Virus record (IMG/VR): IMGVR_UViG_3300044546_000330
Span: 11,341-75,340 of that record
Reading direction: 5' to 3' (one strand)
From: a virus
DNA: 64,000 bases
Part shown: in pieces, positions 9,737 through 38,400 of the stretch
How positions within the stretch are numbered: the first letter of the stretch is position 1
How the letters are laid out: each line of letters begins with the position of its first letter
Position numbers and translations under genes: made by a program
Notes under the pieces: model-generated
What the model was told of the DNA's origin: nothing
Database searches by the model: none
Seen by the model: the letters and a program-made list of their open reading frames with translations, nothing else

Positions 9737-10501
9737 ATGATACAAGTAGGAATCAACGAGGATGTAATCCTCAAAAACGTAGAACTTACCGAAAAGGATG
9801 GTAAGTGGGCTGTAAACTTTGCCTTATCTCAGGGTGGGCAAGAAGACGCAGGTGATGACCCTCTTAATGAGGTGTATGATGAAGATGGGATGCTTGTTAC
9901 CGGTTCAGGTGGAGGTATGAATATCAAAGTGTGGCCTATCAATGTACCTAAAGAGGATACATTTGACGGCAAAGCTAAGACCATCAAGGATCGTATTGAC
10001 GAGGCTAACGAAGCATCGAAGGAAATGCAAAACTTGTTTACTTCTTTTGCCCGTTGCTATCTTACATCGGACAAGATAAAGTTCGAAAGGTTTAGAAATA
10101 TCCCTATTACAAAAGACTCTATGCAGATACTTTTGAACGAGGATACTTTATTGCTTGTTACTAAGAACTTGGCTAACCAGTTCATAGAAATGTGCTCTCC
10201 TTTCTTCGGCCAACAAGAGTACAAACTTAGACTTTTACTTCGCCGCCAAAGTGTAACTAAACACTACCCGGCTTTAAGAGATAAGTTGTTACAAGCTTTC
10301 CCTTTTGTGGAGCTTATGGCTATTCCAAAGAGTGCGTCTAAGATCGCGTTCACTAAGTATGAAATTTCTAAAGGGTTAAACAGTGGCACACCGTCTGTAG
10401 CTACTGATGCTCCTGCGGAAAACTTGGCACCAGTTGATACTAATGCCTTGTTTGGAACTACAGGTGACGTTAACCTAGCTGAAGCTACTGAACTGAACTA
10501 A
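9737..10501 (+). CDS. putative single-stranded DNA-binding protein
   Basis: Lies between the ATPase and primase, has a beta-rich N-terminus and an acidic low-complexity C-terminal tail. No diagnostic motif. Confidence 0.45.
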   Translation: MIQVGINEDVILKNVELTEKDGKWAVNFALSQGGQEDAGDDPLNEVYDEDGMLVTGSGGGMNIKVWPINVPKEDTFDGKAKTIKDRIDEANEASKEMQNLFTSFARCYLTSDKIKFERFRNIPITKDSMQILLNEDTLLLVTKNLANQFIEMCSPFFGQQEYKLRLLLRRQSVTKHYPALRDKLLQAFPFVELMAIPKSASKIAFTKYEISKGLNSGTPSVATDAPAENLAPVDTNALFGTTGDVNLAEATELN

Positions 10502-11463: not shown

Positions 11464-11696
11464 CAGAAGCAGCGGAGTTAGAACAGGAACTAGAACCTTT
11501 ATTAATAGGTAAAGTAGTTCAGATAAAGTACACTCACTTTTCAAAAGAAGAACGGGTCGAGATAGATACAGTTAACCGTCTGGCTGTAGATATCGATACT
11601 AGACCAAACCATTATCTTATACTCTTTACAAATCAAGGTAAGAGACTTGAGATAAACCTAGACGATTTTTCAACACACATAAAAGTACTAAATTAA
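11460..11696 (+). CDS. hypothetical protein
   Basis: 78-aa ORF, ATGA/TAATG-coupled to its neighbours. Confidence 0.6.
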   Translation: MTEAAELEQELEPLLIGKVVQIKYTHFSKEERVEIDTVNRLAVDIDTRPNHYLILFTNQGKRLEINLDDFSTHIKVLN

Positions 11697-12162
11697 TGGC
11701 AATACTAGAACAAGGTACTTCGCAGATTAGCGGAGGCTTCGACAAGGGTATAGAAGAAGCCGGGAGAGATGTTATGCTTGACATCTTTCAAAAGAACCAA
11801 TATCAGTACCCTGTAAAGAGTACTATTAGAGAGATAGTTTCTAACTGTGTAGACTCTATTAACGAGAGAGAAGTAGCTAAGAAGATACTGTCTGGCGCAT
11901 CTGTAGTATCTGATTTCTTTGAAGACAGAGAAGGAGATGTATACAAAGACAGTAAGTTCGTACCTGAATACTATGACCCTAATTGGTTAAGCAATGATCC
12001 TACTACTTACATTACGTATTACGAAGGCGCTACTGCCGAACGGGATAGCATCTGTATTAAAGACTACGGAGTAGGACTTGGGGGAAGAAGGCTTGAGAAG
12101 TACTTTTCACTTTTCTTTAGCACTAAGAGGCTATCTAAACTACCTTTAGGTAAGTTTGGCCT
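11696..12162 (+). CDS. rIIA: rIIA-like GHKL ATPase, exon 1
   Basis: YQYPVKSTIREIVSNCVDS (N box), IKDYGVGL (G1), STKR...GKFGL; the G2 motif is cut by the intron. Confidence 0.88.
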
Positions 12163-12234
12163 TAACATACCGGGGCCGCTGTCAGGTAACTGACATGAAA
12201 ATAAAGTGGGAGAATTGCTGGAAGTCTAAGTTAG

Positions 12235-12249
12235 TTTTACTATCTTTGT
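12235..12249 (+). promoter_or_regulatory. intron-internal promoter for the homing endonuclease (TATCTTTG -7 element)
   Basis: TTTTACTATCTTTGT, the same 15-mer found upstream of the structural gene at 21278 (- strand). Confidence 0.65.
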
Positions 12250-12268
12250 TTCCTAAACACAACATACC

Positions 12269-13048
12269 ATGCGACAAAGAAAAAGTCGAAGTAGAAAAAA
12301 GCACGATTATTTTTCAGTAATAGACACAGAGTTCAAAGCTTACATCCTGGGATGGATATACGCTGATGGCACTCTTTTAAAACGTAACGGAAATAGACAG
12401 GCACTATTTTGCATATCAGTACAAGAAGAAGACGGTAAGGAGTTCTTACCTGAGCTTGCTAAAGTAGTAGCCGACAGAGTACCTGGGATACGATATTACG
12501 CAGCACAGAAGCTTAGAGGAGAAAAGCCACAGATGAGAGTAAGTATATCCTCCGATCAGATATATGCTGACTTAGTACGTCATGGCTTACAGCAAAATAA
12601 AACTGCGTATGGCATGACTTACCCTACTACTTTACCTTCTGAACTAGAGCATCATTTTATACGTGGGTTCTTAGATGGGGACGGTAGTATCATGTACAGC
12701 CAAACTGTCTCTACTTATGTTCCAAAAACTAAGCCTAAGACAAACGTCTTAAGAGACAGGGGACGTATAGCCTTTATAGGAACTGATAAAGCGTTCTTAG
12801 AAGAGATACGAAAAAGACTTCCTATTACAAAGTGTTACTACGGGGGTAAGCAGTCCAAGAACATGTTTACTCACGTACTTTGGGTTGAGCGTGCTTTAGA
12901 TGTAAGAGCGTGTATAGCATACCTATATAAAGACGCCACATGGTTTTTGTCAAGAAAGAAAAGTAAAGCTGATAAGATAATCAGCAGCCGAGCCTTACGT
13001 GCAAGTAAGGAAGGTTCAGAGACTACCGGAGCAGTAGAGTCTGCTTAA
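12269..13048 (+). CDS. double-motif LAGLIDADG homing endonuclease, intron-encoded
   Basis: KAYILGWIYADGT and HFIRGFLDGDGSI motifs; inserted in the P5 loop. Confidence 0.92.
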   Translation: MRQRKSRSRKKHDYFSVIDTEFKAYILGWIYADGTLLKRNGNRQALFCISVQEEDGKEFLPELAKVVADRVPGIRYYAAQKLRGEKPQMRVSISSDQIYADLVRHGLQQNKTAYGMTYPTTLPSELEHHFIRGFLDGDGSIMYSQTVSTYVPKTKPKTNVLRDRGRIAFIGTDKAFLEEIRKRLPITKCYYGGKQSKNMFTHVLWVERALDVRACIAYLYKDATWFLSRKKSKADKIISSRALRASKEGSETTGAVESA

Positions 13049-13161
13049 TAACCGGAAGTAGTATAGAGTAGTTTCTATATGAAACAGCACCCACCTCCGT
13101 GTGAAGACGCACGGATGATGATATAGTCCGACACTCTTGGAAACAAGAGATTACAGATTCG

Positions 13162-15445
13162 CGGTAATAAAGCGCCCTTATCTTTAGAGATGGGGTACTA
13201 TACAGTAGAGTCAAGATACAACGGGCAACTGTACAGGTTCAATGTCTACAAAGGTAAGGTAGAATCTATCATACCTAAGTTTAACATAAAGACAGGGCAG
13301 GAGAACACTGCTCACGAGATGCCAACTCCCTCTGGCGTACCTTACATTTACTACAGCGAAGTCACTACTGAAAAGAATGGAGTATCTGTAATAGTAGAAG
13401 CCAAGAAACCGCATAAAGAACTGTACCGTGATGCAGTCCAATCTCAGTTGCTTTACTTTGACAACATAAACTTTCAGATAATCAAAGAAGGGTATGTAGA
13501 CCAAGTAGATTACAAAGCTGACATTATTTATGAGGATGAGTACCTTGTTATGTCTAACAACTCTTATTACTCCAAACCCCATTTACTTCTTAACAGGGTA
13601 AACTATGGGTACATAAACTTTGGAGAGTTAGAGATACAGGACAAGATAGGTAACATTGGTATCAAAGTACTGCCTGAAGACGTAGAGATTTCACCGTCTA
13701 GGGAATCTTTGGTGTGGAATGACAAGACTAAGGAGACTATTCTTAGTAGATTTAAGGCAGCGGTACAAAGTGCCACAGTACTTGTACAAGAAGAGCTCAA
13801 GGAAAAGGACTTTCTAAGATGGGTAAAGCTTTGCTATGGCATGCAAAACAGGTATTCAAGTGATAAGGCTAATGGCACTGTAGTGGAAAGACTGTCGTGT
13901 ATCATAGATATGGCTTCTTTAGAACCCACTTATAATGGTACTGATATAAAGTTTAACCATAACGTGCTAGACTTCCTACTCGTAGAGAAAGTAGAAATAA
14001 TTAAGACTAAAAAAGCGAACAAAGTAAGTAACAAGGTAGACAGAAAAAGAGTTTACACTTTATACGATGCTATGAATTCCAAAGTAGTAATTTCTACCGG
14101 TAAGAGAAACAATCGTAAAGACAAGTACCTATTAAGTACTGCAGATAAGTTTGTACGAGTAAAACCCCCATATTGGTTAACAGAAGAGTCACAGTCTCTT
14201 AGTAAAGAGGAGTTACTTGAAACCATATTGGAAGGTTACGTTTCTGAATCGCACAAAGAAGAGATAAGAAAGAAGTTTAATGCTAACAACTCTGTTGAAG
14301 TATGGAACTTGCTAAAGTCTTCTATAGATGTGCTAGACTACGAAGCCATAGAAGTCCCTGATAGCTTTGTCGCTTCGAACAATGAAGAAGATGAGGAGAT
14401 CATAGAAACTGAGGAGGAGAAACAAGAAGCTGCTATGTCTAATGAGGAACGAAGAAAGTTACACAACAAGGTAGTAATACACACTCCAAGATTTGTATCC
14501 GATTCTCGTGCACCTCAGTTTATAGAATGGCAGAAACTTGAAGTAACTGTAAAAGAGATCGAAGCCTGGGATGCTGCAGAAGTGTACTATGGTAACGACG
14601 TAGATGGCGATACTATTAAACTTGTAGCTATGTTGTCTCGTAAAGTGAACAATGAAAGTGACTGTGTATGGCTTCCAAAAGGTGTTACTATTGAGGGCGA
14701 TGCTAATCCGGGAGAAGAAGGCCACTACTCTGAATGGCGTAAATCAAAGTTTGACGAGTCCATCACAGCGGGCGTAGCATATAGGTGTTCTCATTTCTTT
14801 GACAATACGCAGATTAAACTGATAAAAGTTTCTCAACAGACTACTAAACTGTATAAGAACTTTTACCACATAAACAAATTCTTTTACCGTTTAAACAGAG
14901 GTGTACTTACCATGAGCAATGTACTAATACAGTGGAATACTTCCCGCTTAATTAAACAGGACCTTCATAAGTTGAACTTCTTATGGAACTATCCTTTCTC
15001 GCAAGAGAAGAAAGACCAGTTTAGAGAGATAGTAAAGTATGTCAAACTTAACTATAGGCCGATGGCAGGGTTTCAAGATAAAGGTGTTGCACCTGAAGCT
15101 TTAAACAACTTGACTGCACATCTTGATAAGGTACTGCAGTTTCAACTCTTTGTCAAAGAAGGGCATGCGTCAGAAGACATAGCTAAACTTGCTTCCGAAA
15201 TGTGGGGCAGTGAATCTGTAGTTGACGGCCAGGCTATTGACATGGCAGTATGGGACAAGTTTAAAGCTTTGCTTGAGTGGTCAGAACCTATTAGAGTACT
15301 ATTAAATGAGATGACAGCGTTAACAGGCATTGATGGTGTAGCTCTAACAGAAGTTGACCAATACCAAGATAGACAAGAGTGCCTTATTAAAGAAGAACTT
15401 GAACACTCTCTTATTTCGTATATCAAGTCTAAGAACGTATCTTAG
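13162..15445 (+). CDS. rIIA: rIIA-like protein, exon 2 (spliced product 916 aa)
   Basis: Continues GNKAPLSLEMGYYTVESRYNG, NGVSV, VEISPSRESL; followed by rIIB. Confidence 0.88.
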
Positions 15446-15460
15446 CATAAAATCTCAAAC

Positions 15461-16645
15461 ATGATGATTATAGTAAACAACATCAACAACGAAAGAATTG
15501 TTGGTACAGCATCAGGAGAAGCTTTCTCAGTTACTTACTCTGAAAAGAAGTATAACTTAATGAAAGAACTCCAAAACAAAGCAGAGGACGCTACTACTGT
15601 AGACGAACTTAAAGCTATCTTAGAAGAGTTTACACCTCTTACTAAAGAAAGCTATAAGGAAATCATAGAGCAAGCCTGTCCTTATGTAGTGTGTAACCCT
15701 CACACTAATAAGTTCTATCTGAAGTACAATGGAGTAGTGTCAAGCCGACCTATGCCAAACGAGTTTGCAGAAAGACTTGTTAAGTCCGCAGAAAAGGGAA
15801 TTGATTTCATGCCTTACGTGTACATGTGGGTCCGTTATTTAAGAGAAGCTGAAGGCCGACCGGCTTACAGTTTACAAAGAGCTAACGACTTTGCCAAGTA
15901 TGTAACGGCTACCTTTTGTAATCCTAGAACAGTAACACAACTTATGGACGACTTTGGCCTGTCAAGAGAAGCTGCTGTCAAACAAGCAACTCTACCACAA
16001 GTTTCAGTTACGAAAGAAGGTCTATTGTGTACCTTTAAAGTTAGTACTGAGATTCGTCACAGATATGACTTGAACGAGGACGAAGAAGTAGTTGTAAAAA
16101 GTAGGTACAAGAAGAGTGTTGATCCTGATACAGGAGAAGTAACTTTTACTGAGCCAGACTTTGCTGAAGACTTATTGTTTGAACCTGCTGTAATGGGCGA
16201 AAGAGGAGATGCTTTTAACTGTGTCTCTATTAATGGCGCCTTTAACAAGAAAGGTCACCACATCCGCGTAGGCTGTCGTCACTTCTTGGATAGCTGGGAT
16301 CAAGTAGGTCCTCCTATGGGTCCTGGTTTACACGTTGGTAACCTGGATTACATTGGAACGTACCAAACTGACCAGACTGTTACTCATAACGTATTTGTAG
16401 ACCCTGCTCATATCCATACTGTGAATCCTAACGGGCATGGAGACGGTGCTTTGACTTGTATTGAGTACTTTGTTCACAGTTCCTTTAAGGGGCAGAACAA
16501 AACTCTGTATAACTCGTCAGAGTATGCTAAGTTCCACGATGAAGAGTACGTAAAGTACTTGAATGAAGTGGTAAAAGCTTCTGCTATGAAGAAGGAGGAA
16601 GTTGATCAGTTTGAGTCTGAAGCCAAATCTCTGATTAAAGCCTAG
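15461..16645 (+). CDS. rIIB: rIIB-like protein
   Basis: VTKEGLLCTFK, GLHVGNLDYI, VFVDPAHI; adjacent to rIIA. Confidence 0.8.
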   Translation: MMIIVNNINNERIVGTASGEAFSVTYSEKKYNLMKELQNKAEDATTVDELKAILEEFTPLTKESYKEIIEQACPYVVCNPHTNKFYLKYNGVVSSRPMPNEFAERLVKSAEKGIDFMPYVYMWVRYLREAEGRPAYSLQRANDFAKYVTATFCNPRTVTQLMDDFGLSREAAVKQATLPQVSVTKEGLLCTFKVSTEIRHRYDLNEDEEVVVKSRYKKSVDPDTGEVTFTEPDFAEDLLFEPAVMGERGDAFNCVSINGAFNKKGHHIRVGCRHFLDSWDQVGPPMGPGLHVGNLDYIGTYQTDQTVTHNVFVDPAHIHTVNPNGHGDGALTCIEYFVHSSFKGQNKTLYNSSEYAKFHDEEYVKYLNEVVKASAMKKEEVDQFESEAKSLIKA

Positions 16646-21335: not shown

Positions 21336-24300
21336 TTATCTAACTGCTGAACTAAGGTCAGTAGTTGCATACTGGTTTAGTTTATTTACATTGTTCACTA
21401 TAGGCAGGGCTTTTGTAGTCTTGAGAACAGCTTTGTCCCAATGGTATCCTTCATCTGTAGAAAACTTGTACCAAGCTTTAGGCACAGCAAGTGCATCTCT
21501 TACTACGGACCATGAAGGTACTGGGTTACCAGTCAACTGGTCAAACACATCCGGGCTAGAGTAGATAGCAAGATCCTGGTAAGTTCTATACAGCATGTTT
21601 ATAGTCATACGTTGTATAGCTGTGTGATCTTTCCCTAGTCGTCTTCTCTTCTTCATCTCTTCGTCGTCTGGTAAAGCAGCTTTAAGTAAATAGTACGAAG
21701 CAAGTATAAAAGCAGTGTAAGCCATACCTGCTAAGTTTCTTCTCATGTTCTCTTTCTCATGTTCTTGCAAGTCTACTAGTTGCCTTTCTCCGTCTACAGT
21801 TCTCCATATCTGGCCACTGTCTAACGGATTTGTTCCAGTCATTACACTGAAAGCTTGTTGCAATAACATAGGTACTCCAAGACCAGGCATACGTAACATA
21901 GTTCTGTATCTACCTTCTACGTTTCTTTCTAGTACCTCACTGTATCCTTGATCACTGCCCCATCTAGTCTTAATACCTTCTGGTATCCAGCTAGCTTTAA
22001 ACTGACCAAGTAGTCTACCAAACATGTCCTCTTTAATATGCTGAGGCATAAACTTGTCCTGCGCTCCAAAGATTATGACCTGTATCATTCTAGCTCTTAG
22101 AGTAAACTTGTTCCATTCTGTTTGTTCGCTCCTGTTATCTTGAGAAGACCACGCTTTGTTCTCGCCATACTTGGCAGCGTCCCATTCTCCGTTCTCATTT
22201 AAAGCGTCGAACAAACGAATAGTTTTCTCTTCGCCATCTACAAGTACTTTTATAGGTACATTAAGAGTACGGGCAATAATACACGAACCTTTAGTAAGAA
22301 AGTCACCTGACTTCTGCGCTGCAAAAGGATGGAAGAACTGAGCGGTGTTTGACTTCTCTTCTACTAGGTTTGTTTTACCGTAAGCAGTGTCTATTAATGC
22401 CTCGATAGAACCAACTCTCTGTATAATTGCTGCACATTTCTTAGCAACGTCTCCACCTTCGTACCCAAACGCTTTTAACCAAGACCTAGACACATTACCT
22501 TTCATCATCTTGAAAGCTAGTTTAAGGTGCTCTACTGCAAAGTCTCCGTTACCTTTAGTAAAGCCATCTTCTCCAACTCTAAAACCTCTGGCATGTATCA
22601 TTGCGGCCATGTAACCGTAAGTAAAGTTAGACACAGCTGAGAGAGGATTATAAGACATAGACTTAAGTTGTTGCAAACCTATTGTAACGTCTGCTATTTT
22701 AGAAGCAGCAATGTACCTAGCCTTTGATCTTATCTCTTCTACTCTGTTCTCTACCATTTCCAACTCTTTTACAAGTGGGTGATTAGGATTATCGTAAGGG
22801 TTTACACCAGTGTTTGCATGCTCATCTAGTATTTTACTTCGAAGAACTGGGACTCTTTTAACAAGTTCAGCAAGTTCTCTAGTAAGTTTTTTGTTCTCTC
22901 TGACGTTTGCACTGTACACCGGCGTAGTACCGACTCCTTGTACTTCCGTAGGCTTTTGGTATACCAGCATATCTTGATAGTACTCCATCAAGCTTAACAA
23001 GTTAGTCAATCCTTTCTTACCATCCTTTAGTCTCTCATTGTTTTCCTCTTTAACTAAACGAGTGATAACGTCTCCTACTTCTTTTACAGGGTACATGTTC
23101 TTGTAGTGTATAGCCATGTTACCAAACATCTCAAAGATACGAGGTAAGTCATGACTAATCTCTTCAGTAAGTACTCTGCCTTTTACTTTGTTTCCGGCCG
23201 CATCAATAGTCTCTTCCCTTGGGGCAGCACCGGCGTACTTAACCTTAAGTTTAGAACCGCGTACTTTGTCCATCTGGTCTTTAGTAACAGATAGTTTTTC
23301 AAGCGCCTTTTGCCCTACTGCTGACGTCTTAAAGTTAGACAAGAAGTTAGAAGCTGCTGCCATCTGATCTATACCTACTATAGGCAAGAAGTTTTCGTGT
23401 AAACTCTCCGCTAGTGTGGCCGGTAAATAGTCTCTAAACTTTTGAGACAATTCGGTTAGTATATCATAAGCTTCAGACAGGTTATTGTTGGCCCTTATCT
23501 TTTCGTACTTACTATCTAAGTTAGATGCTAGTCTTTTAGGGGCAAACCAAGCTTTGAATCTTCCGTTGTGCGCGTATACTCTTTCTTCTTTTTGAGACGT
23601 AGATGGTTCTGTGTTTAAGAAACTAACCGGAGAGTTTCTACTTTCCCAACTAATCTTTTGTCTAGCTTTCTCGTTTTCTATTCTTGTCTTAACGTGATTA
23701 GCCATGTACACAAGTTGTTCATCTGGCGTCATGTTTGCCCAGTTTATCTGGTCTTCAGCGGATAAAGTAGCAGGATCAAAAGCTGCCATAGCAGGGTCTG
23801 TTTCTACTCCTGCTTCTAACTCTTCGAACTTTATCTCTCTTATCTCTAAGTACTTTTTGTAGTCCTTTTGAGCTTTTTCTATTACCTTCTTAGTAGATTC
23901 TTCTACAGTCTTAGAATAGAAATCTGCCAACACTGCTTGAGCTTCTGCGTCTGTTCTTAGTTCCCCTGTAGCTAAGTCAAGTATCTTGTCGATAGGAACT
24001 GCTATGCCTGTCTTGTTACTTTCTTTCCAGTACTTCTTAAATGCGCGTTCTGCAAGTTTCCTTTTACGTCTTACATTGTCTGGCGTATCAGTAGGCATAC
24101 TTTGTAGTTCGCTAAGTCTGTGTCTTAAGTACCCTCTATTACTAGCTAATGCTTGATACCAGTCAGGGTGCAATTCTTGTACAAGTCCAAACACAGTGTT
24201 GGCATCGTTAGTCTGAATGAACTGTGCGTAAGCTTTCTCGTCTGGTACAAGTTCTTTAAACCTCTTGAGTATACTTACCAAGTCACGCTTTTCAGCCTCT

Positions 24301-27300
24301 GCAGTCTGTACATGGTACTGAGTAAACGTAGTGTACATCTGCATTAACTTGTTAGCATCTCTCTCTAAGTAGATCAATTGATCTTGAAGTATGTGTATCT
24401 CCTTAAGATTAAAACCAAGGTCAGCCGGGGTAAGTTCTATGTTTGTAACTTCTTTACCTGTCGCTATTACAGTGTGCATACCTTGCTGTACCATTCTATT
24501 GGTGAGTTCTCTGGCTATACCTTCTATTGAAGAAGTGGCAAGTTTAAAGTCTTCGTTAGTAGTATCAAACCCAGTTTTGTAAATCTCTGATAAAGAGTTC
24601 CAAGTATCTAGTACTTCCCAAGCGACATTCACTTCAGACATGTGCAGGTTACCTTTAGTCAATCTATTCTTTACCCACTGTATCTGTTTGTTACCTATCT
24701 CTATTACCTTCTCAAGGTCATTGGATTCTTTAAGTTGATCGTAGTCATCCTTTACTTCGTGGTACTGTAGTTTTGCTTCTGCTTGACGTTGTCTATCTTC
24801 ATCTGTTCTAGCGGGTCTATCTATTGCACCTTCCATAACTTGTAGAGTTCTATACATGTTCTCAAGTACTTTGTCCACATAGTCAGTACGTATAGACTTA
24901 GCCTCGGCGCCGACAGTCAATATTAAGTGAGTACCTTTGTCTTCTACAGAAACGTCTTTAGATTGTGTAGTACCTATGATGTCCTTCATGTGGCTAGCTT
25001 CTTGTTCTGTAAAGAAGAGCATAGCAGGGGGTGCAAACAAATCATCAAGAGTAGTAGTTATTCTTTCTAGCGCTCGTTCGTTGTGGTCTTGTAAAGAAGA
25101 TAAGTCATAGCTTAGCGCGACTGCTTCTTTCAGTATACTAGTACTATTGTACTGTACACCCTTTGCCTCAAGGGCTTTTACTACCTCTGCAAAGAAAGAA
25201 GTTACAGCGTCTAAAAGCTTCTCTATCCAGTTTTCTGCTTTGTTTGTAGACTCTATGCTGTTAAGAAACTGCATAAGGTCTTCTTGAGTAAGCACTTGGA
25301 CTACAAACTCTTCCATACTTGAAAGACTGTACATCAACCTGATGTTAACGTCGTCCGGCAAAGAGCTCTTATTCTCTTTTAACAAGTTGGACCATTCTTC
25401 AAACTTTCCAGGTTGGGCAATTTCCATCTCTGCTTTAAGTTTAGCTAAAGCTTGTTGACGAAGCTTGTCTAACTCTATAGCTTTTCTATAAAGGTCAGGG
25501 TGCTTGGCGATAAACGCTTGAGCACTTGCTTGGTACTCAGCAAATAACTTATCTGACTCTGCCTTTGATGCATTAGGGTTATCTTTACTATACTTTGACC
25601 ACCATAAGTCCTTGTTTAACCATCCCATACTTCTTAAGAACCCTACAGATCTTGTGTGTAAGTTCTCGTGTACAGTTGTTTCAGCAGCTAACTTTATGTC
25701 CTTAGTAGGTTTAAGATTTAAAGTATTAGTCTGTAAGAAAAAGTTACCACTAGACCCTATAGGGCTAGTAGGACTATAGCTAAATGGTTGGGCAGTGTTT
25801 ACTCCAAGAAACTGTCTGCCTTCAAGTTCTTCAGCTGATACTGTTGACTCTGCAAGACTTTGAGCAAGCATTCTTAAGTAGCTAGGTACTAGAGGATCTG
25901 TAGACAGAAGTTCTAATCCTCTGTTCATAATCTCTTCACCACCTTCTATATGCAAGTTCCAGCGGGACAGTGCGTTATTAGGGTCACTACCTTCACGTAT
26001 TCTCTTTTCGACTTCAGAGTCTAACTGCCTTTCAAAAGTAGCTTCTTTAAACTTATACCCTGCTCTGTTCTCTGGGAACACTGATCGATTTATTTCGTGC
26101 ACTTTAGAGTCATACTCTACATGATTATCTTGCCCTAAGGTGTCAACGCGTTGATAAGTAACTGTACCTCCCGCTTCTCTTAGCCTGTAAAGTATAGTAC
26201 GCCCTTCTTGTTTAGACCTGTAACTAATGTACTTAGTGTACTCTTGCTCGCCGTCTCCAGGTACAACTTGTAAGTTTGCATTTTGTCCATACTTAAATAC
26301 TATTATCTCAGGGTAATCTCTACCTGTGACCTCATACTGGGCCCAAGAATCTTTAAACACAGCAGAGTCTACTTTGATAGCTAGTTTAGGCATGTGCTGA
26401 TACAGCTGATCTATAAACCCAGCAGGCACTTTACCAGTTGCTTGTAGCATTTCATAGGAAAGCCTTAGGTTTACACTTATATCAGTACCTAATAAAACTC
26501 CTGAAGGTAACTTACTAGCCAAAGAAGTTGAACTAGCCTGAGGAGTAAGTAGCATAGTATACGTTATTAAGTCTTCTCCTAGTTGTCTTTCTACTTCATT
26601 ACTTGATTGTATGAGAGCAGCAAAATCTTCTATTACTTGGTTGTCTGTTGCACGTATAGACTTTTCATTGTGGACAGTTATAAAGTCGGGCCCTTTTCCT
26701 ACTATTGCAATATCAGTAGAAATACGGTTTATAAGACTGTTAGTCTTGTTCTCTTTCATGTACTCGGCCACTCTAACTGCTAAGGACTTATTTGTCTCGG
26801 TATTGTAGAGTAGTCTTAACCTTTCAGCAGTACTGTTCATAGCTATTGCAGGTGAGGTAGAGATTAAGAAAGACCTAAAATTCCTAAGGACTTCTAGTTG
26901 TACTTTCAAAGGTAACTCACTCATTACTTTACCTTGTTGCATTGCCACTTGTGACATTAGACTAGATATAGCATCTACCGGGAATACGGAAGCTAGTAAA
27001 TTCTTGGCAATAGGAATAGTCATCTGGTACATCTGTTCCAGCTGGTGCTCGGGCTCAGTTAAATAGTGTTCCCCTATAAAGATCTTGCCCATAGTTGTGT
27101 GGCCAAGCTTTTCATGATTCTCTTCTTGCTGAAGTAAGTAGACTAGGTTAGGCCCTGCTCCATTAGTGTCTTGGTTTAAAGTCTTTTGAAGTTGTCTAAT
27201 ACGTTCTCCTATTTCCAACAACCTTTCAAACTTTTTCAAAACCGCTAACTGTCTTGTGTAGTAAAGACTGTCCTTAGCTTCTTCTTTTAAAGAAGTATTA

Positions 27301-30300
27301 AACGCTGCTACAAGCATCCTCTCATCTACGTTTGTAGTTGCTATTTCCTTTACCAAGTCTTCATCACTATTCTTTTCTTTCTTTTCAAGAGCACTAGCAG
27401 CTTTCCACTTTGCTGTGTAGTCTCTAGCTAGTCCTTCTATAATAGTAGCTTGTAGATTAGCATTGTACTCTTCACTCAAGGAGTCATTTCCTTTTCTATA
27501 CTCTCTAGTGTAATCGTTTAAGATCTCTTGTACAGATAATGCTGTTTGAAAGTTTTTACTTAAACCCAGGTTTGGCTCTTTCTCCTTAACCTGGTGTATC
27601 ATATTCATAGCAACAAAGGCAGGATAAGTAGCCAAAGTAATATTTAAGTTATCTAGATCTCTGTTGTTAGCATTATCTACGGCGCCTGACTGATCTATGG
27701 TAATGTTATCGTGTTTTGAGTACCAAGTAGACATGTCATCAGTAGAGTCTTCTCCTCTTGAGATTGCTTCTCCCGCTAAGTGAGAAAGTCTAAGACCGTT
27801 TAATTCTAGCGGTCTAGGGTTTTCATGCACCATACCTTCTTTATCTGTATAGTAGTTTCCTAACTTTATTTCTCGTCCTTGCGTAGCAAACTTTTGTAAG
27901 TTAGCTTCTTGGGTTGAAGCTAAGGAAGTAGCGCCCACCAAAGACTTAGCATCTTTTGCAGATTGGAAAGTTTTTAATTGAGTGATAGCAGAAAAGTAAG
28001 TATGTGCCCCTGTAACTCCGCGAGCAAACTTCTTGTTAGCTTTAGCCAAGTCAGTCTTATCCAACTTAGAAAAAACTTTAGCGTACATATCCTTGTGGGT
28101 AAGTATTCCCCAGTGGATATTAAAGTAATCCTTTTGTAAAGTGTCTGTTGTTTCTTTTTCCCCACTTGTCACTTCCATGAACGAGTTAGTCTCTGGGTTA
28201 TGCCAGTAAGGTCTTTGATAAGTGTACAACTTATCCACGTCAAAGTCAGATCCCATCTGTCCTGTAATGGCTCCAGGTACTATCATCAGATCTCCCATCC
28301 ATTCAGGAGTAAAACCTACTATCTCAATAGGTATCATAGAGTTGTGGCCCTGATTAGGGATACGCGCGCCTACAAGTTGTAATAGTTCCTTAGGTACACG
28401 GGCCATGTCCAACTGGTTAGTACCTTCTATAAGGTAATCAGATACTTTCTGTTTAACGCCGTTGATGTGAAAGTTAAAAGGAGCTATGACTTGGGCCGGC
28501 AACACGTTACCATTCTCGTCCTTAGACATGTGTCTTAGAGGTTCATCAAGATTGTAGTCTCCTATTGTCACTATTCCTTTACGGTCTGCAGCTGAAAGAC
28601 TTGCTAGTCTTCGCATACCTATACTAGAAGCCTGTACATAAGACTTACCAGGCATCTTAAACTCCGTTACTTTCTTCACTTGAGCAAGTAATAACTTCTC
28701 AAATCTTTCTACTGCGCTATGAAAGAATAGCGGGTAAGCCATGTAATCTTTCTGTACTTCAACAGGGTTGCCCTTACTGTCAATCTTTGTTTCAGTTTCA
28801 GAGAGTATACCTTCTAGCAAAGCTATATCGTTAGGAGGAAACTCTCCTGCACGGGCAGCGTCTACTAGAAGTTCTATTACTTTCTTAGGTTCAATTTGTT
28901 CTGTTGCGTTTTTAATTCCAAGTTTAGAGTACAAGTCTTTAAGGTTTCTAGTAGCCATAGCTATTCGAATAGCTTCTTTACGTTGTCTTACTTCTTGCCC
29001 TGAATAAGTTTTACCAGAATCGTCGATAGTAAAGTTTGACATCTCTAATATTCCTTCTACTATTAACTTGTCCATCTGAGTAACTACACCGATCTTAGTC
29101 TTGCTTTCATCGTACGGAACCTCTTGCTGAATACGGAAGTTTGCTCTGTCCAGTTGTCTTGTACTTCTAACTAAGGCGTCTTTGTCAGGCGAAACAAACT
29201 TGTTGTCCTCGTCAAAAAGTTTAACAAGTTTTGGATTATTACCCAGTTTACTACCTGATTTAAAAGAACATCTTTGGTACAATTCTTTTCCGTCAGTAGT
29301 CTCGTGCCCTGGAAGTTTACCTTCCATTAGTAATCTTAGCTTGTCTAGTTCCGTATCTTTTGTGTACTCTTTAAACAAAGGAAAAGACATAGTCTTAAGA
29401 TAGTCATAAAAGATTAAACCATTTTCATAACGTGCCCCAGCGTATACCGGCTTCATAGCACCCATAGGTTCGATCATCTGTTGCAATTGCTCGTCACTAA
29501 AGTCTCCGTCTTTGTCTAAGACTTCTATAAGTTCGTTGTATAGTTTTTCTTCTATTTTTCCAGCCTTATACATTACATTTAAGTGCTCTCTTACAGTTGT
29601 TAACTCTTGGGCATCTGTAGCTTCTGAAGACTGTACATTACTACCAAACTTAGCTGCGTACCCATAAGTCATTGTCACGTCAGTAATAGTTAGGTGAGAG
29701 TACAAAGGATTTTCAAACTCTAGTTGTTGTCCCGGAGCAATGTCTTTTGCTAGACGTTTAGAATAGAAAGCCAAAGTCTTTTCTTCATTACCCTTCCATG
29801 CATTAGCTGGGTCTCCCATAAACATAACTACTGAAGAGGCGTTCCATAGTACTGAATTAAGAGCGTACTCATACGCAGTTCTTCTAAGTATTTCCTCGTT
29901 CTTAGTCTTTCCCTTTAGGTCTTTGTAGTTCTTTTTCTGGTACTTGGTATCTATAAGAGTATGATCAATACCGTTGTCCTTAAAGTACTGCACAGCTTCG
30001 TCACCTATTTGTGTAAGGTACTCGGCTATTCTTTCTTTTACAAAGCTTTGTACGCCGGCATCTAAAGAAGAAGCAACATTGCCTTGCTCGTCAAAAAGAA
30101 ACATACTATTTTTACCTAAAGACTCTTTGTTTAAAGTAGGGAATAGTATAAAGCGTTCACCTCCATCGTCCATTGCTTCTGAACCTGCAGTACCTTGATT
30201 TCTTTTTAACTCTTGTACTCTCTTAATACGAAGCCATTCTCCCTCGAACAGAGTGTACACTGCGTTTACTATCTCAGGGGTTAGGTTACCATCTTTCCCT

Positions 30301-33300
30301 ATAGCTTGTACTCTAGGTATGTTGCTAAAGACAGGAGTTGTAGTCTTATCTGAGTGGGCCATAGAGATCATGTGCATCAACTTGTGACCCTGGTTTGTAA
30401 ACATGTTTACTGCTACCAGTAGTTGTTCACGGTCAGACATGTTAGGACGTACTCTACCAAGTAAAGCATTGTCCATGTTCAGCCCTTCCAAGTAAGACAG
30501 GTTAAACTTATTGACATCTAGTTTGCCCATGTAATAAGTACCGCCCCACACACTTTCCTGTATAGATGTAAAGACTCCGTCTTTGTTAGTCTTAAAAGAA
30601 CTTACTATGTTAGACAAAGCGCTCGGGTACGAGTAGTCCCAGTTCTGTTTACCCTCTATAGTAGTGTGTACTGAGTTAAATAGCTTCTCACTATACCTTG
30701 ATGTAAAACTTGCAAGAACTCCCATAGTCTTTTCTTCTAAGTAGATAGGGTTATTTTCTTTTACTAAGTTCTCCAACTCTTCTGTTACACTCTCATCTAA
30801 CTCAGCCCCGTAAGTAACGCCGGCCGCTCTGTTAAAGAAGGCAGAGAATATACCGTTAGACTTACCGTTTGTAGTATTAGTAAACTGGCCAAGCCAGTCT
30901 GTACTCATTTCCTTATGAGCCATTGACGAAGTAATAAAGTCTACTCTTTGACCATTCTTGTAATAGTACCCAGCCATGTCATTAAGTACAGGCGTGGACA
31001 ACTGTATCCCGTGGGCAGCGAACATTCTTTTTAACAGAGCTTTTTGTGTAGCACGTTGTTGATCTCTTGGAACTCTTGCCTCGCTTGTTTCTTCTTTTAT
31101 AAGAGCGTCTACTAGATTAATCTGTGCTTCAGGGGATGTATTACCTATAAACAATCTTGCTGCAGGGTTAGAGATTGCTAAGTCGTTTAAGTACAAGTGT
31201 AGCTTTACTGTTAAGTCAAGTACTTCGTTAGGGTTTCTAAAGTCTACTCGTTGGAATAGTTGCATCATATTAATTACCCCAAGATGATGACGAGCTTGTT
31301 CTACGTCAAGTACCTTTTCCCCTGTCTCTCTAACCTTTATCATAGGAGAGACCATCTGTGCATCTGTCCAAGCTTTTACAATAGTTTGATTCTGTGAATA
31401 TCGTTGTGCGTTTATGACGCGAGTAGTAAGAAAGTCTTTTCCTCCGTCTGATCCTGAGTCTGCTCTTAGTACTAGGAATTTGTTATACTGCATACGCATA
31501 ACCTTAATAAACTCTTTTTGGTTTCGAACGCTAGTCTTTTCTAATCTGTCAGCAAACTCTTCTAAGTTGGCATCTCTTTGAGAACGTAGAATTGCCAACG
31601 CTTCTTCCATACGTAAGTTAGGGATGTCAGCTAAAAGGCCTTGTACATTTTCGTACATAGTGTCAAACTGAATAAGAGTAGGAATACCAAACTGAGTTTT
31701 AGCTGGCAATCGTTTCATCTTACTTCTTAAGGCTGCTTCAAGTTCTGGACCTGTGTACTCACTGTGGTACACTACCTTGTTGTTCATCTGCCTAGCCTGT
31801 GCAACTGTAAGTGTATCAGGATTGATGTGAGAAATGTCCATTGCGTCAGGCAAGATAGACATGTCTGCCAACTTGTTAACTCCTATGATGTCAAAGTGCT
31901 CACGTTCTCCTTGCCCTGCCATAAAGATTTTAAGACGTGCAGTAGCTGAGGATTTGCTATTCTTTTCAAAGGAACTATCTTGCCACCCTTTTACAACTTC
32001 AGTACGTGTATCCTCTACATTAAACTGAACGTCATCTAAGTTATCTGAGATGTAGTCCTGTATTTCTTTTTCGTAATCTGTACTCTCCTCAATATTGATT
32101 GTCATACCTTCATCTACTTTAACAAAGGTTGGATCTGTTTTCTTAAGGTTGAAGTAAGTCTTTAGTTTGCTTCGATCAGCAATGTCTATCTTGTACCCAA
32201 GTACTGCAAGGTTTTCTAGTACTGAATCAATGAAGGATAACTTGGGGTCAGTGCCATTAAAAGCAAACGAGTTTACAACGTCTTTCCACATATTACCCAT
32301 TTCAGTGTTCTCTAAAGCCATACGCTTAGATTCTTTGAGTAACTGTCCGAACAAGTGAGGTACAGAAATGTTACCGTTTGCCTGATTGTACATTAGATAG
32401 AACGTACTAGTAAGTGCGTTAATTAAACCAAGCTGAGCTTCTTTACCGTGCTTCTTGGCAAAGTAGTCTTCTACTTTACCGTTTTGATCAGTTATACAGA
32501 TTTCCATCTTAGCACTCATCTTTGCCATCTCAGTTTGATCCAGTCTCCAGGCAAGTCTTGAATTCTTAAACTCATTTATCTTATCTGTAAAGACCATCAA
32601 TAGTCTTTCTGTGTTGTTGTTCATCTCAAACAAGAAAGCCGGTGGTAGTTTTAAGTTAGGAGGAAAGTCATCTCCCATCTTAGTACGAAGATCATCTAGC
32701 ATTTGAGCGTACTCAGAAGGTTTGATACCTCTTGAGTCTGGCCAATTGTTTACTCGTGGGTTTTCCCAAGGCACAGTAAAGAGTTGATCAGGTTCGGCAA
32801 CTGCTGCAGCTACTATCTCTCTTTCTAAAAGTTCTCTTGCTTCCTTTATGTTTTCGTTGGTAAGGTTCTTTCTGCTTATAGGGTTAGGTGCCTCAGGCAT
32901 TCTGAGCATAGTTATGCCTGGAACTGCTGTGGATGTTTGAACGGGTTTACTTTCTGCAGTACTTTGTAGAGTATTCTGGTATATGTCTCTTATGGCTTGC
33001 ACAGATTCTGGCGTCATAGTACCGTTATCTTGCCTACTACCTATACCTGCAAAGTTCTTATGAAGTGTTGGTACACCTGTTTGTTCGAATGTAGTACCAT
33101 TCCACTTGTACCATTCATTTGTTTTAGTGTCAAAGACTACAACTTCTTTTCCGTTGGCTATCCCCATCTCAACAGCGTAACCAGTTCCACCATCTACAGT
33201 AGTACGTACAGCTTTAGAAGTATACCCTTTACTGTTTTTTTCCCCAGGTTGAATAAGTGGGGCTATAGCGACTACTTGTGTACTGTTTTTAACTTGATAC

Positions 33301-35477: not shown

Positions 35478-35483
35478 ATTGTG

Positions 35484-38400
35484 TTAGCACCGTTTAAATG
35501 GATTGAAACCTTCAGGCGGGTGTGTAACTTGAATACGTCTAAAGTAATCAAACATTTCCTGGGGTGTAATACCATTCCTTTCGGATTGTGGTGTAAAGTT
35601 ATACATCTCTGTTAAACTCTCCAAAGAAACTGCAGGAACCTTTTGAGTACCTACAGTTTTAGTACTAGTTTTAGGCATTTCGACAGACGGTGACATGCTC
35701 CCAACGTCTAATCCTAACCCTGCGCCAAACCCGCCCTCTACATCAACTGCTTCATCTTCTACAGTTGTTGGCGTGTTAGCTACTTCTCCATCAGGGATAA
35801 CAGTACTTGGTCGATTGTTTAACGCAAGTATAGGATCAGTGTCGTACTCTATTATAGGGTTGGCCCCGTAATAGAACTCTTTGTGAGTTTTACCGTTGGC
35901 GTCAGTAACATCTACTCCACCGTCTATGTAGTTAATTGGTACAATAGGACTTACAAGATGAGTACTTATAAAGTCGTTGTAAGAAGAGTGCTTAATAGCT
36001 CTCCACTTAGTTCCGTCGTATATGAACTCGTTTATTTCTGAAGGGTCGTTAAGCCCAATCATCTGTCTTACAGGGGAAGTAAATGCTACACCTCTATACC
36101 TGTTGTCGAATAACGTAGCTACTGCTTTTTTAGAATCTCTAGTTAGTTTACCCGTGGCATCTACAGCCATTGTCCAACTTTGAGTACCGGCGTCATCTGT
36201 GTAAGAGATTACTATGTTTTCACCTACAGAACGTAACTGCAGTCCTTCACCTACTTCAGTACTAAAGTAAGTGTAATACTGACTTACAAAGTTTCTTAAT
36301 CCGTCTTTAGTAAGTTTCCCGTTAGTGTCAGTTAGGAAGTTAAACCCTAATGCTTTAAGGGCTTTCATCTCTGCTTCATCATGCTGTAAGTAAAGTTCTA
36401 GTACTCTATTAAAAGTTTGAAAGGAAGTATCATCTGATTTACTTGATAGCTTGCTTCCTTTTAAAGGAACAAGAGTTCTAGCGCCGTTAGCCATTCTTAC
36501 TAAAGCCACTACTCTACCGTCTAGATTTTCTATACCCTCTTGGTCTATACTGTTTAGCATGCCTGGTAAATTCTCAACACCAATTAAACTTTTACCTCTT
36601 ACTAAGACCATAGGAACTTGTGAAACTTTTCTAGACCCTTGAACTACATTACTTTCCTTGAGTACTATAGAAGCTTTAATCCCGTTGTTAGGAGCGTAAA
36701 CGTACTTACCCGGTCCTTTAGTTTTAACTTTTGTTTTAGTTTCAGTCTCTCCTCTGTTGTGCGCTTTAGCTAATGCCATTCTATAGGAGAACATATCAGC
36801 GGATTGTTTTGCTACGTTGTTCTCTTCTTTGATATTACCTTCTGCGTCCCGTAGTACGTTTACAGTGTTGTACCAAGCATCTTCTAAAGGCTTGCCATCA
36901 GCGTCCACTGCTAAAGGATCTTTTCTTTCTATCCAGTTTACAGTGTGCAACCATTGCGGAGTTTCTCCATCTGCAGTGACTATCTTTATAGGCATATTAC
37001 CTATAGCTTCAGGGTTGTCAGTGTCAATAGTACCGTCAGGTCTTAGGTAAGACTTTACCTCTCCTTTACTTGTTAAGTAATGTCCGGCCGGTATATCCAC
37101 TTGCTGTATTGCAGAAGGTTTAAGACTGCCTGTTTTGGCATCAACTATCTGAGGAGTATACTGTACTGTGCCACTGTAGGTTAAGTCAATACTAATAGTT
37201 ACTGGAGTATTGGCAGTAAGTTGGTCATGTTGTACTACTTTCTTGCTAGCAGTCTCTTCCCAAAGAGAAGTACTTTCTCTTCGTACTTTGTTATCTGCCC
37301 ATCTTTTCTCAAAGAAAACTGTGGACCGCGATGCTCCAGAGGAAGCTGAGTTTACTTGCTTAAATCCTTCCACTCCACCTTTCTCATCCGGGTCTTCTAT
37401 AGTAGTAGCTGATAAGTCAGGTTCTAAAAAGTTGTCAGGGCTTTGCGCCATTATTGTAGCGGCAAAGTCTAGAGGTTCAGGTATATTCTGTATGGCCTCT
37501 TCGCCCTCTTCAATAGTTTCTGCTAGTTCTGTAAGAACCACACCTTGTGCTTCTAGCATAGCTTTTACAGCAGTCATTAGTTTAGCACTGTCATCTGAGG
37601 ACAAGTTTATGCCATCTCTGGTAAACGCTCCTAGTGAAAACTCTTTTGTAGTTCTTACTTCTTCCACAACAACTAGTATCTCAGCCTGCTTTGCTGGGTA
37701 CTTCTGTAGCTCAGCTATAAAGCCTTGTATAGCAATCTCTAGTTTAGACGGGCCAGTAGGTGTTACAGGTGGAGCTAATGGCGCCGGGGTATGAGGCATA
37801 GTAGTAGAGTTCTCAAGTCTGTATATGTACTCTGTGTACGTATTTATTTGCTTCGTTAAGAAGTCTGCCTCTGCTTTTAACTTGGCAACACTTTTCATCA
37901 AGTCTTGTACCTCTCCTACAGGGTCTGCACTGTTGAGCTTTATAACCCCTATCAACTGGCTCAGTTGGTTTAACTCGTCGTGTATTTTACCCAGTCTAGT
38001 AGCTAACTTTGTTGACTCAGCTGTAAACTTTCTTTGCAATCTTTCTCGTACAGTTTTATTGTACTTCTGTATCTGAGATTCATTATCCAGTACTTCTTTG
38101 ACGTTTCTATTAGCCGAGTCTCTTTGCTTCTTTAACTTCTCTCCTAACTTATCATAGAACTTTGTTGTGTTCTTCATGATAGTTGACAAGGTAGCAGACT
38201 TGGTAATAGTCTCGTGCACTCCTTTAAGTATGTCAAGTCTGTTCTCTTCGTCAGAGATATGTTCTACAAGCGCCTTTTGGTACAAAGAGTCTTGTTGCTT
38301 TTCCATCAGTTCTTTAAAGTAATCTTCAGTTTTACCCTCTGGATTCTTTTCCGACCAGGCAGCGAATTCCTCAGTTCCTAAGTTCTGCTTTTGAAGTTCT

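Follow-up and report, generated by a model that had tools for sequence, protein, structure and literature searches.

How is a phage gene to be read when two open reading frames (ORFs) on one strand carry the two parts of a single ATPase and a third ORF lies between them? The question is raised by a 64,000-nt stretch of viral DNA (hereafter, the window), which comprises bases 11341-75340 of the 75-kb linear IMG/VR virus record IMGVR_UViG_3300044546_000330 (CheckV completeness 83%), and in which a gene resembling phage rIIA is interrupted within its ATP-binding site. An earlier note, made from the letters of the window, had taken the two outer ORFs to be one rIIA gene split by a group I intron. 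Our analyses lead to much the same view: nucleotides 12163-13161 are very probably a mobile group I intron of subgroup IA, residing in the gene for an rIIA-like GHKL ATPase of a crAss-like lake phage. The features on which the argument turns are these:

11696-12193, plus strand: upstream ORF, 165 aa (ORF list)
11696-12162, plus strand: rIIA-like exon 1, 155 codons and the CT of Leu156
12163-13161, plus strand: very probable group I intron of subgroup IA type, 999 nt (RF00028, helices, covariation, fold)
12269-13048, plus strand: middle ORF, 259 aa (ORF list); gene for a two-motif LAGLIDADG homing endonuclease in loop L5 (Pfam, PHROG, fold)
13162-15445, plus strand: rIIA-like exon 2, the third base of Leu156 and then GNKAPLS... 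to the stop (760 codons)
13190-15445, plus strand: downstream ORF, 751 aa (ORF list)

At the 5′ junction the letters read ...TTTGGCCT, with 12162 as the last exon base, and at the 3′ junction the intron ends in ...GATTCG at 13161 and is followed by CGGTAATAAA. Joining 12162 to 13162 by script produced a 2751-nt open frame encoding 916 aa that reads ...LPLGKFGLGNKAPLSLEMGYY..., with CU|C as the junction codon for Leu156 and the sequence GKFGLGNK restored. Left unspliced, the frame of exon 1 meets a TGA at 12191-12193, 31 nt into the insert, and the ATG at 13190, the first of exon 2, is simply the start chosen by the gene caller. An uninterrupted counterpart exists in P0001, a 916-aa protein from another metagenome that was the top protein-database match of the frame from 13163 (97% identity). 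It aligns with the joined product without a gap and at the same length (894/916 residues identical, 97.6%), the two being identical throughout residues 1-287, which span the junction; exon 1 by itself reproduces residues 1-155 of the intact allele exactly. The single gene, the splice points at 12163 and 13161 with their CTC leucine codon, the 916-aa product and the stop at 12193 in unspliced RNA, all put forward in the earlier note, were thus borne out. Both junctions are crossed by contigs assembled from independent lake metagenomes, those of different runs having no more than one mismatch (12127-12507 and 12709-13700 in run X6; 12123-12286 and 13100-13700 in run X12), which argues that the arrangement is not an assembly chimera.

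The kinship of the host gene with rIIA, also claimed in the earlier note, proved remote yet significant. P0001 matches four PHROG families of 'RIIA lysis inhibitor', the best at 1.5e-18 over the stretch 121-203 that covers the junction, and tblastn searches with it led to annotated rIIA genes of T4-like phages, KVP40 among them (7e-7), and to the rIIA-type 'protector' gene of the crAss-like IAS virus (2e-8). Since its identity to classical rIIA is 22-26%, 'rIIA-like' is the safe name. A phmmer search of PDB with P0001, a tblastn search of phage records with exon 2 alone (at 1e-5) and a scan of genome contigs for rIIA relatives returned no match. The ATPase signature is clearer in the family than in the single protein, the Pfam model HATPase_c_3 scoring 28.6-33.6 bits in homologues (cut-off 25) and 19.8 bits in P0001. 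In 55 full-length relatives the N-box residues E46, N50 and D53, the G1-box residues D123, G125 and G127 (DxGxG), and the G2-box residues G152, G155, G157 and K159 (GxxGxGxK) are invariant; exon 1 holds the N-box, the G1 box and the first half of the G2 box (GKFG), and the interruption falls between G155 and G157. The AlphaFold model of the intact allele (mean predicted local distance difference test, pLDDT, 81.7) has Hsp90 and TRAP1 as its best structural matches (E 2e-12, probability 1.00), and its N-terminal domain is modelled least confidently at residues 151-160, in keeping with a mobile ATP lid. Both the invariant G2-box residues and the Hsp90 match agree with the earlier placement of the intron in the lid of a GHKL ATPase. 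Two other members of the family are unusual in different ways: in P0074 (1139 aa), an rIIA homologue, the N-terminus bears an in-frame fusion to a GIY-YIG domain (PF01541), and at L034:5498-8037 the part of rIIA that precedes the junction lies on the opposite strand, beside the remainder, a strand switch that could be an inversion or an assembly artefact.

The insert has the anatomy of a group I ribozyme, all of its helices being placed by coordinate and fully paired. They are listed below with the basis of each placement, i.e., coordinates, covariation or a minimum free energy (MFE) fold, and with occurrences in four related introns, those of the loci L007, L045 and L062 and of the polB gene of phage phi14:2.

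12158-12162 with 12173-12177, plus strand: P1, GGCCU/GGGCC, with the U12162.G12173 wobble at the 5′ splice site
13162-13166 with 12168-12172, plus strand: P10, exon-2 CGGUA/UACCG, abutting P1 on the guide
12180-12195, plus strand: P2, UGUCAG-GUAA-CUGACA, with the exon-1-frame TGA (12191-12193) inside the hairpin
12206-12210 with 13090-13094, plus strand: P3, GUGGG/CCCAC (coordinates, covariation)
12216-12221 with 12981-12986, plus strand: P4, UGCUGG/UCAGCA (coordinates)
12224-12227 with 12975-12978, plus strand: P5, GUCU/AGAU, 4 bp
12988-13014, plus strand: P6/P6a (coordinates)
13021-13025 with 13124-13128, plus strand: J6/7 and P7, GACUA/UAGUC (coordinates, MFE fold)
13026-13055, plus strand: P7.1 (MFE fold), present in L045 and phi14:2
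13062-13079, plus strand: P7.2 (MFE fold), present in L045 and phi14:2
13096-13115, plus strand: P8 (MFE fold)
13134-13149, plus strand: P9, CUCUUG-GAAA-CAAGAG with a GAAA loop (MFE fold)
13161, plus strand: terminal (omega) G; a G precedes exon 2 in L007, L045 and L062 too

Thermodynamic folding recovered P1, P10 and the core as placed by coordinate. An unconstrained MFE fold of 13021-13161 gave P7, P7.1, P7.2, P8 and P9 (z -3.72; 0/200 shuffles as good), and the core words of the R and S elements, UUCAGAGACUA and GAUAUAGUC, occur once each in the 64 kb, both at this intron. The presence of P7.1 and P7.2 between P7 and the 3′ strand of P3 assigns the intron to subgroup IA, the usual phage type; this is the level that was tested, and the finer label IA2 is one that we presume. 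The exact splice points follow from the U at position -1, which pairs with a G of the guide, from the terminal G13161, and from P1 and P10 lying side by side on the guide. The Infernal group I model, which the earlier note had proposed as a check, gave a divided answer: searched over the sub-region 12100-13260 with an E-value threshold, RF00028 matched 12887-13150 at E 9.4e-11, and the 47.6 bits of the match fall below the gathering cut-off of 50. In the Infernal alignment P6-P9 are correctly placed and P1-P5 are misplaced, owing to the ORF-bearing insert of 740 nt (about 12232-12971) that takes the place of the P5 loop. Its placement of P1-P5 inside the endonuclease ORF was rejected because the strands upstream of the ORF covary, and these upstream strands were preferred as they are contiguous in relatives without a full-length endonuclease ORF.

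Covariation was read by eye from a hand-built set of five sequences, with no statistical test: the window intron, three introns from other rIIA loci and one from a polB gene. In L007, a contig of 47 kb, an intron of 957 nt occupies exactly the position seen in the window, carries a homologous endonuclease and has an RF00028 score of 52.8 bits (cut-off 50); L045, a metagenome locus, provides the 3′ part of a third copy; and L062 has a fourth, ORF-less copy at the G2 box (GGGU|UA, 48.6 bits), 1 nt from the position in the window. The fifth is the polB intron of the Cellulophaga phage phi14:2 (crAss-like, Akihdevirus; NC_021806, where the coding sequence is annotated as joined), which belongs to the same ribozyme lineage: its 3′ core is 76% identical to that of the window over 171 nt, including an identical stretch of 30 nt covering P7′ and P9, its P4 strands UGCUGG/UCAGCA are identical to those of the window, with the motif GAAUUGCUGGAA shared around the 5′ strand, and it too has P7.1, P7.2 and an ORF in L5. 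It differs in its host, a DNA polymerase gene, in its ORF, which is of 58 aa and encodes no LAGLIDADG enzyme, and in its P1, P2 and guide.

Across the five introns P4 and P7 are invariant, and P1, P2, P3, P6a, P7.1, P8 and P9 differ in sequence with full pairing kept in three to five of the related introns; P7.2, missing from L007 and L062, is fully paired in the other three (window, L045 and phi14:2). The equivalents of P2 are UGUUAA/UUAACA in L007 and UAUACA/UGUAUA in L062, P3 varies from GUGGG/CCCAC to UUGGA/UCCAA, and in P1 of L062 the exon (GGGU) and the guide (GCCC) have changed together. The motif GAAUUGCUGGAAG, in the region of the 5′ P3-P5 strands, is common to the window intron, L007, L062 and the phi14:2 polB intron. 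With this covariation and the RF00028 match, the earlier observation that P1, P10 and the full core are visible stands.

Relatives of this ribozyme were also encountered elsewhere. L062:1360-2133 is a divergent rIIA homologue with two group I introns, the upstream one (RF00028 54.9 bits at 1375-1599) lying about 48 nt before the second, so that a mini-exon of about 48 nt encodes about FSTKRNTNKGALGGYG. L007 also has a partial RF00028 match at 352-548 (35.1 bits, E 1.5e-5), upstream of its rIIA intron by about 4 kb, and another gene may be interrupted there. Introns with the P7′-P9 or P3-P4 words of the same lineage occur in other genes at L038:1700-2010 (minus strand) and in L041-L044; that of L038 splits a large terminase gene just before its Walker A motif and has an HNH-like ORF upstream. 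Loose ends in run X9 contain further related cores from the same lake. Record 4 of run X10, a 151-nt contig from another locus, aligns to window 12209-12231 and 12972-12995, with window-like P3-P4 and P4′ flanks separated by only GCGTGAGC (8 nt), and from its sequence we read it as an ORF-less relative whose short P5 would be capped by a GUGA tetraloop. Its apparent skip from 12231 to 12972 was not taken for an intron-less joint, the contig being a cross-mapping relative from another locus.

The occupant of loop L5 is a LAGLIDADG homing endonuclease of 259 aa with the motifs ..LGWIYADG.. and ..RGFLDGDGS.., in which G28, D33, G34, G133 and D136 to S140 are invariant among 35 homologues. It matches Pfam LAGLIDADG_3 (PF14528) at 22.8 bits (cut-off 22.5) and phrog_4645 at 7.5e-34, and its homologues carry PF00961 and PF14528. 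The structural model (pLDDT 89.6, predicted TM-score 0.86) has a two-domain alpha-beta fold, for which the best matches were I-OnuI, I-GpeMI and I-Tsp061I (probability 1.00), and also I-SmaMI. Like these enzymes it consists of two domains that both have a LAGLIDADG helix and its acidic residue, although its identity to them is 11-18% and its length 259 aa as against about 300. It further differs from the I-OnuI-type meganucleases in a C-terminal tail of 14 residues (246-259), predicted to be disordered, which is encoded by the ribozyme core. The overlap is extensive: the last 77 nt of the ORF (12972-13048, about 25 codons) are at the same time P5′, P4′, P6, J6/7, P7 and P7.1, and the stop TAA (13046-13048) falls within P7.1. 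The R element GAGACUAC is read as E-T-T, so that UCA GAG ACU ACC is translated as the tail ...SETT, and 21 of the 35 homologues have ETT among their last 45 residues, mostly as the terminus. Upstream of the ORF, TATCTTTG at 12241-12248 fits the Bacteroidota -7 box TAnnTTTG, 20 nt before the endonuclease ATG, with TACTTTTG at the equivalent place in L007, and similar boxes shortly precede the ORFs that start at 9737, 17969, 21278 (minus strand) and 52352 (minus strand). A Bacteroidota-type promoter for the endonuclease was nonetheless rejected, as TAnnTTTG is weakly enriched in the window (88 vs 70 +/- 9).

How the element is distributed bears on its mobility. In a survey of 34 rIIA loci from IMG/VR, 33 were uninterrupted and L007 had the window-type intron; among the intron-less are the closest relatives of L007 (L011, L012, L003 and L046), as is P0001, the closest relative of the window, and with these the search for intron-less rIIA alleles suggested in the earlier note was answered. 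Compared with L007, the window has an endonuclease that is 80% identical as protein, as against 59% for rIIA exon 1 and 41% for exon 2, and the DNA of the intron is 72% identical, as against 61-64% for the exons. The site itself also differs: the intron-less relatives of L007 read GGC TTA GGT AAT, whereas both intron-bearing alleles read GGC CT|C GG(T/A) AAT, which is the form that the guide sequence pairs with. In a protein database, 13 of 110 rIIA clusters begin at residues 157-184, just after the site, and two of the 13 open with the translated 3′ end of the intron. Eight further ORFs consist of exon 1 only and terminate at GKFG(L/I/V), with a read-through peptide NIPGP or NIPVP in four; one of the eight lies on a 14,468-bp contig together with a split rIIA and an endonuclease 67% identical to that of the window. 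An exact-pattern scan of metagenome contigs for the 3′ end of the intron gave no match.

More than 486 IMG/VR stretches encode relatives of the window endonuclease, and in the six closest (L070-L075, 37-44% identity) an rIIA-like sequence follows it, the tblastn match to rIIA starting at residue ~152-156 in all but L073. Their rIIA is of a clade far more distant (22-28% identity, motif GMMG|LGFK) and their splice site is GGU|CUA (e.g., L071:2868 and 3863), 2 nt upstream of the site in the window. There are thus three splice positions within 3 nt, namely GGU|CUA in L070-L075, GGGU|UA in L062 and GGCCU|C in the window, and in every case a U precedes the splice point and the guide sequence matches; for one homing unit this would mean repeated re-invasion or sliding of the intron. 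We lean, by a modest margin, towards the view that in environmental phages of deeply divergent lineages the GxxGxG box of rIIA has long been a hot spot of homing, occupied by a single co-evolving unit of ribozyme and LAGLIDADG endonuclease whose protein tail is overprinted on the core.

From the sequences we infer that the window intron splices by its own catalysis. The pre-mRNA would fold into the ribozyme and a guanosine would attack after U12162 in the U.G pair of P1; G13161 would then occupy the guanosine site, with exon 2 aligned by P10, and ligation of the exons would give CU|C (Leu156), hence GKFGLGNK and the 916-aa protein. Without splicing, translation would stop at 12193 after 165 aa and the G2 box for ATP binding would never be completed. 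The patchy presence of the intron, and an endonuclease more conserved than its host gene, suggest that the LAGLIDADG enzyme encoded in L5 would cut intron-less rIIA alleles at the GxxGxGxK motif during co-infection, with repair of the cut allele copying the intron in (homing).

Several observations weigh against a functional intron at this site and have to be set beside the evidence for it. Rfam at its gathering threshold found no match anywhere in the window, the intron scoring short of the cut-off; P5, at 4 bp, is short and ill-defined; the near-identical intron-less allele P0001 is known as a protein only; four lake DNA runs aligned to the locus contained the intron-bearing form, in pieces, and no intron-less joint was seen in them; and no RNA run is listed among the sequencing runs with near-identical sequence. 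The last point leaves some room for the main rival, an intron-like insertion that no longer splices, so that rIIA is made as polypeptides of 165 aa and 751 aa (from ATG 13190), working together or not at all. There is a precedent for such an outcome in an N4-like phage, in which an insertion in g39 led to two proteins and no splicing (preprint 10.1101/542787), and an ATG is indeed available 28 nt into exon 2. That ATG is not conserved, however, the corresponding ORFs of L007 and P0019 starting inside the intron, and in a split product the invariant G157 and K159 would be missing, since GNKAPLSLE would go untranslated. Moreover, the ribozyme core is intact, its helices have been kept through base changes in several phages, and intron-bearing alleles have exon flanks that match P1 and P10. 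We therefore consider a non-splicing insertion improbable.

Less probable again, to the point of being hard to credit, is a free-standing LAGLIDADG gene between the halves of a dead rIIA pseudogene, with the resemblance to group I introns a relic. The Rfam score below the cut-off would suit such a relic, and T4 rIIA is dispensable in many hosts; yet both exons are open and free of frameshifts, at the 97.6% identity to an intact allele given above, a like arrangement has been kept in divergent phages, and near-identical DNA was present in 24 metagenome runs of lake water or freshwater dated 2018-2025, from 24 studies that may not all be independent campaigns. As for an artefact of assembly, by which the intron of another genome was joined into rIIA, its one attraction is that the same lakes abound in related cores, which cross-map (witness the loose ends and record 4 of run X10). 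Against it are the contigs of different runs that bridge both junctions, and the like architecture of L007, L045 and L070-L075 in independent assemblies, and we give it almost no credence. A splicing, mobile subgroup-IA intron in an rIIA-like gene remains by far the best account of the locus.

The introns of T4 td, nrdB and nrdD (sunY) are of subgroup IA2 and come with I-TevI, I-TevII and I-TevIII. Like the window intron, they belong to subgroup IA, interrupt protein-coding genes of a phage, loop out an endonuclease ORF, contain an early in-frame stop and home to conserved motifs (in part PMC3984707); they differ in having GIY-YIG or HNH enzymes, in ORFs located in P6a or P9.1 rather than L5, and in hosts that belong to nucleotide metabolism. 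A 2014 review gives polymerases, ribonucleotide reductases and terminases as the targets of phage introns, and GIY-YIG, HNH, PD-(D/E)xK and EDxHD as their usual enzymes, LAGLIDADG not being a usual type (PMC3984707). For crAss-like phages, Yutin et al. 2021 (PMC7886860) reported a high density of group I introns with LAGLIDADG ORFs, with the major capsid protein, PolB, primase, the AAA ATPase ATP_43b and RNA polymerase as hosts and no occurrence of rIIA; ATP_43b was considered as a possible rIIA and rejected, being an AAA ATPase. The phages of that study came from the gut, whereas the window phage is from lake water. The earlier note had named no intron site in rIIA, and our full-text literature search likewise found no report of one, its apparent matches being unrelated.

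The locus is a well-supported case of an element of known type, a group I intron with its endonuclease, in a host gene for which the papers searched report no intron. rIIA joins the short list of phage genes that host group I introns, and a LAGLIDADG enzyme, of a family unusual for phage introns, appears to have specialised on the ATP-lid motif of a GHKL protein. There are practical consequences for annotation, as gene callers break such an rIIA into a pair of unrelated ORFs or begin an ORF inside the intron (e.g., P0016, P0019), and about one in eight clusters of this rIIA family in a large protein database look truncated through the intron. Homing endonucleases persist on sites that are unable to drift, and repeated homing units at the GxxGxG box therefore argue for a functional importance of ATP binding by rIIA in crAss-like phages and their relatives. 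If the box truly is a hot spot, the ATPase site of rIIA would in these phages be under much stronger selection than T4 genetics suggests. With the related copies, nature also provides a series in which shifts of insertion site, and the double use of one stretch as ribozyme core and as code for a protein tail, could be studied.

The remainder of the window provides the setting for the gene. The next ORF after the split gene (15461-16645, 394 aa), in the candidate place of rIIB, matched no Pfam or PHROG family. Two giant ORFs lie on the minus strand:

21336-40748, minus strand: giant ORFs of 4713 aa and 1754 aa (ORF list)

The 4713-aa ORF matches phrog_16227, 'virion structural protein' (1e-42), and family searches with the 1754-aa ORF gave no match. 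A weak RF00028 match at 29251-29417 (plus strand, 17.5 bits, E 1.5e-3) was judged to be due to chance and ruled out as a second intron, as it lies inside the uninterrupted 4713-aa ORF and is without the R and S core motifs. The replication module comprises a family-A DNA polymerase, Dda-like and other helicases, and a primase. The polymerase, PolA, is closest to those of IAS virus and the PhiCrAss phages, which are crAss-like, and its similarity, together with the giant ORFs, suggests that the window derives from a crAss-like freshwater phage.

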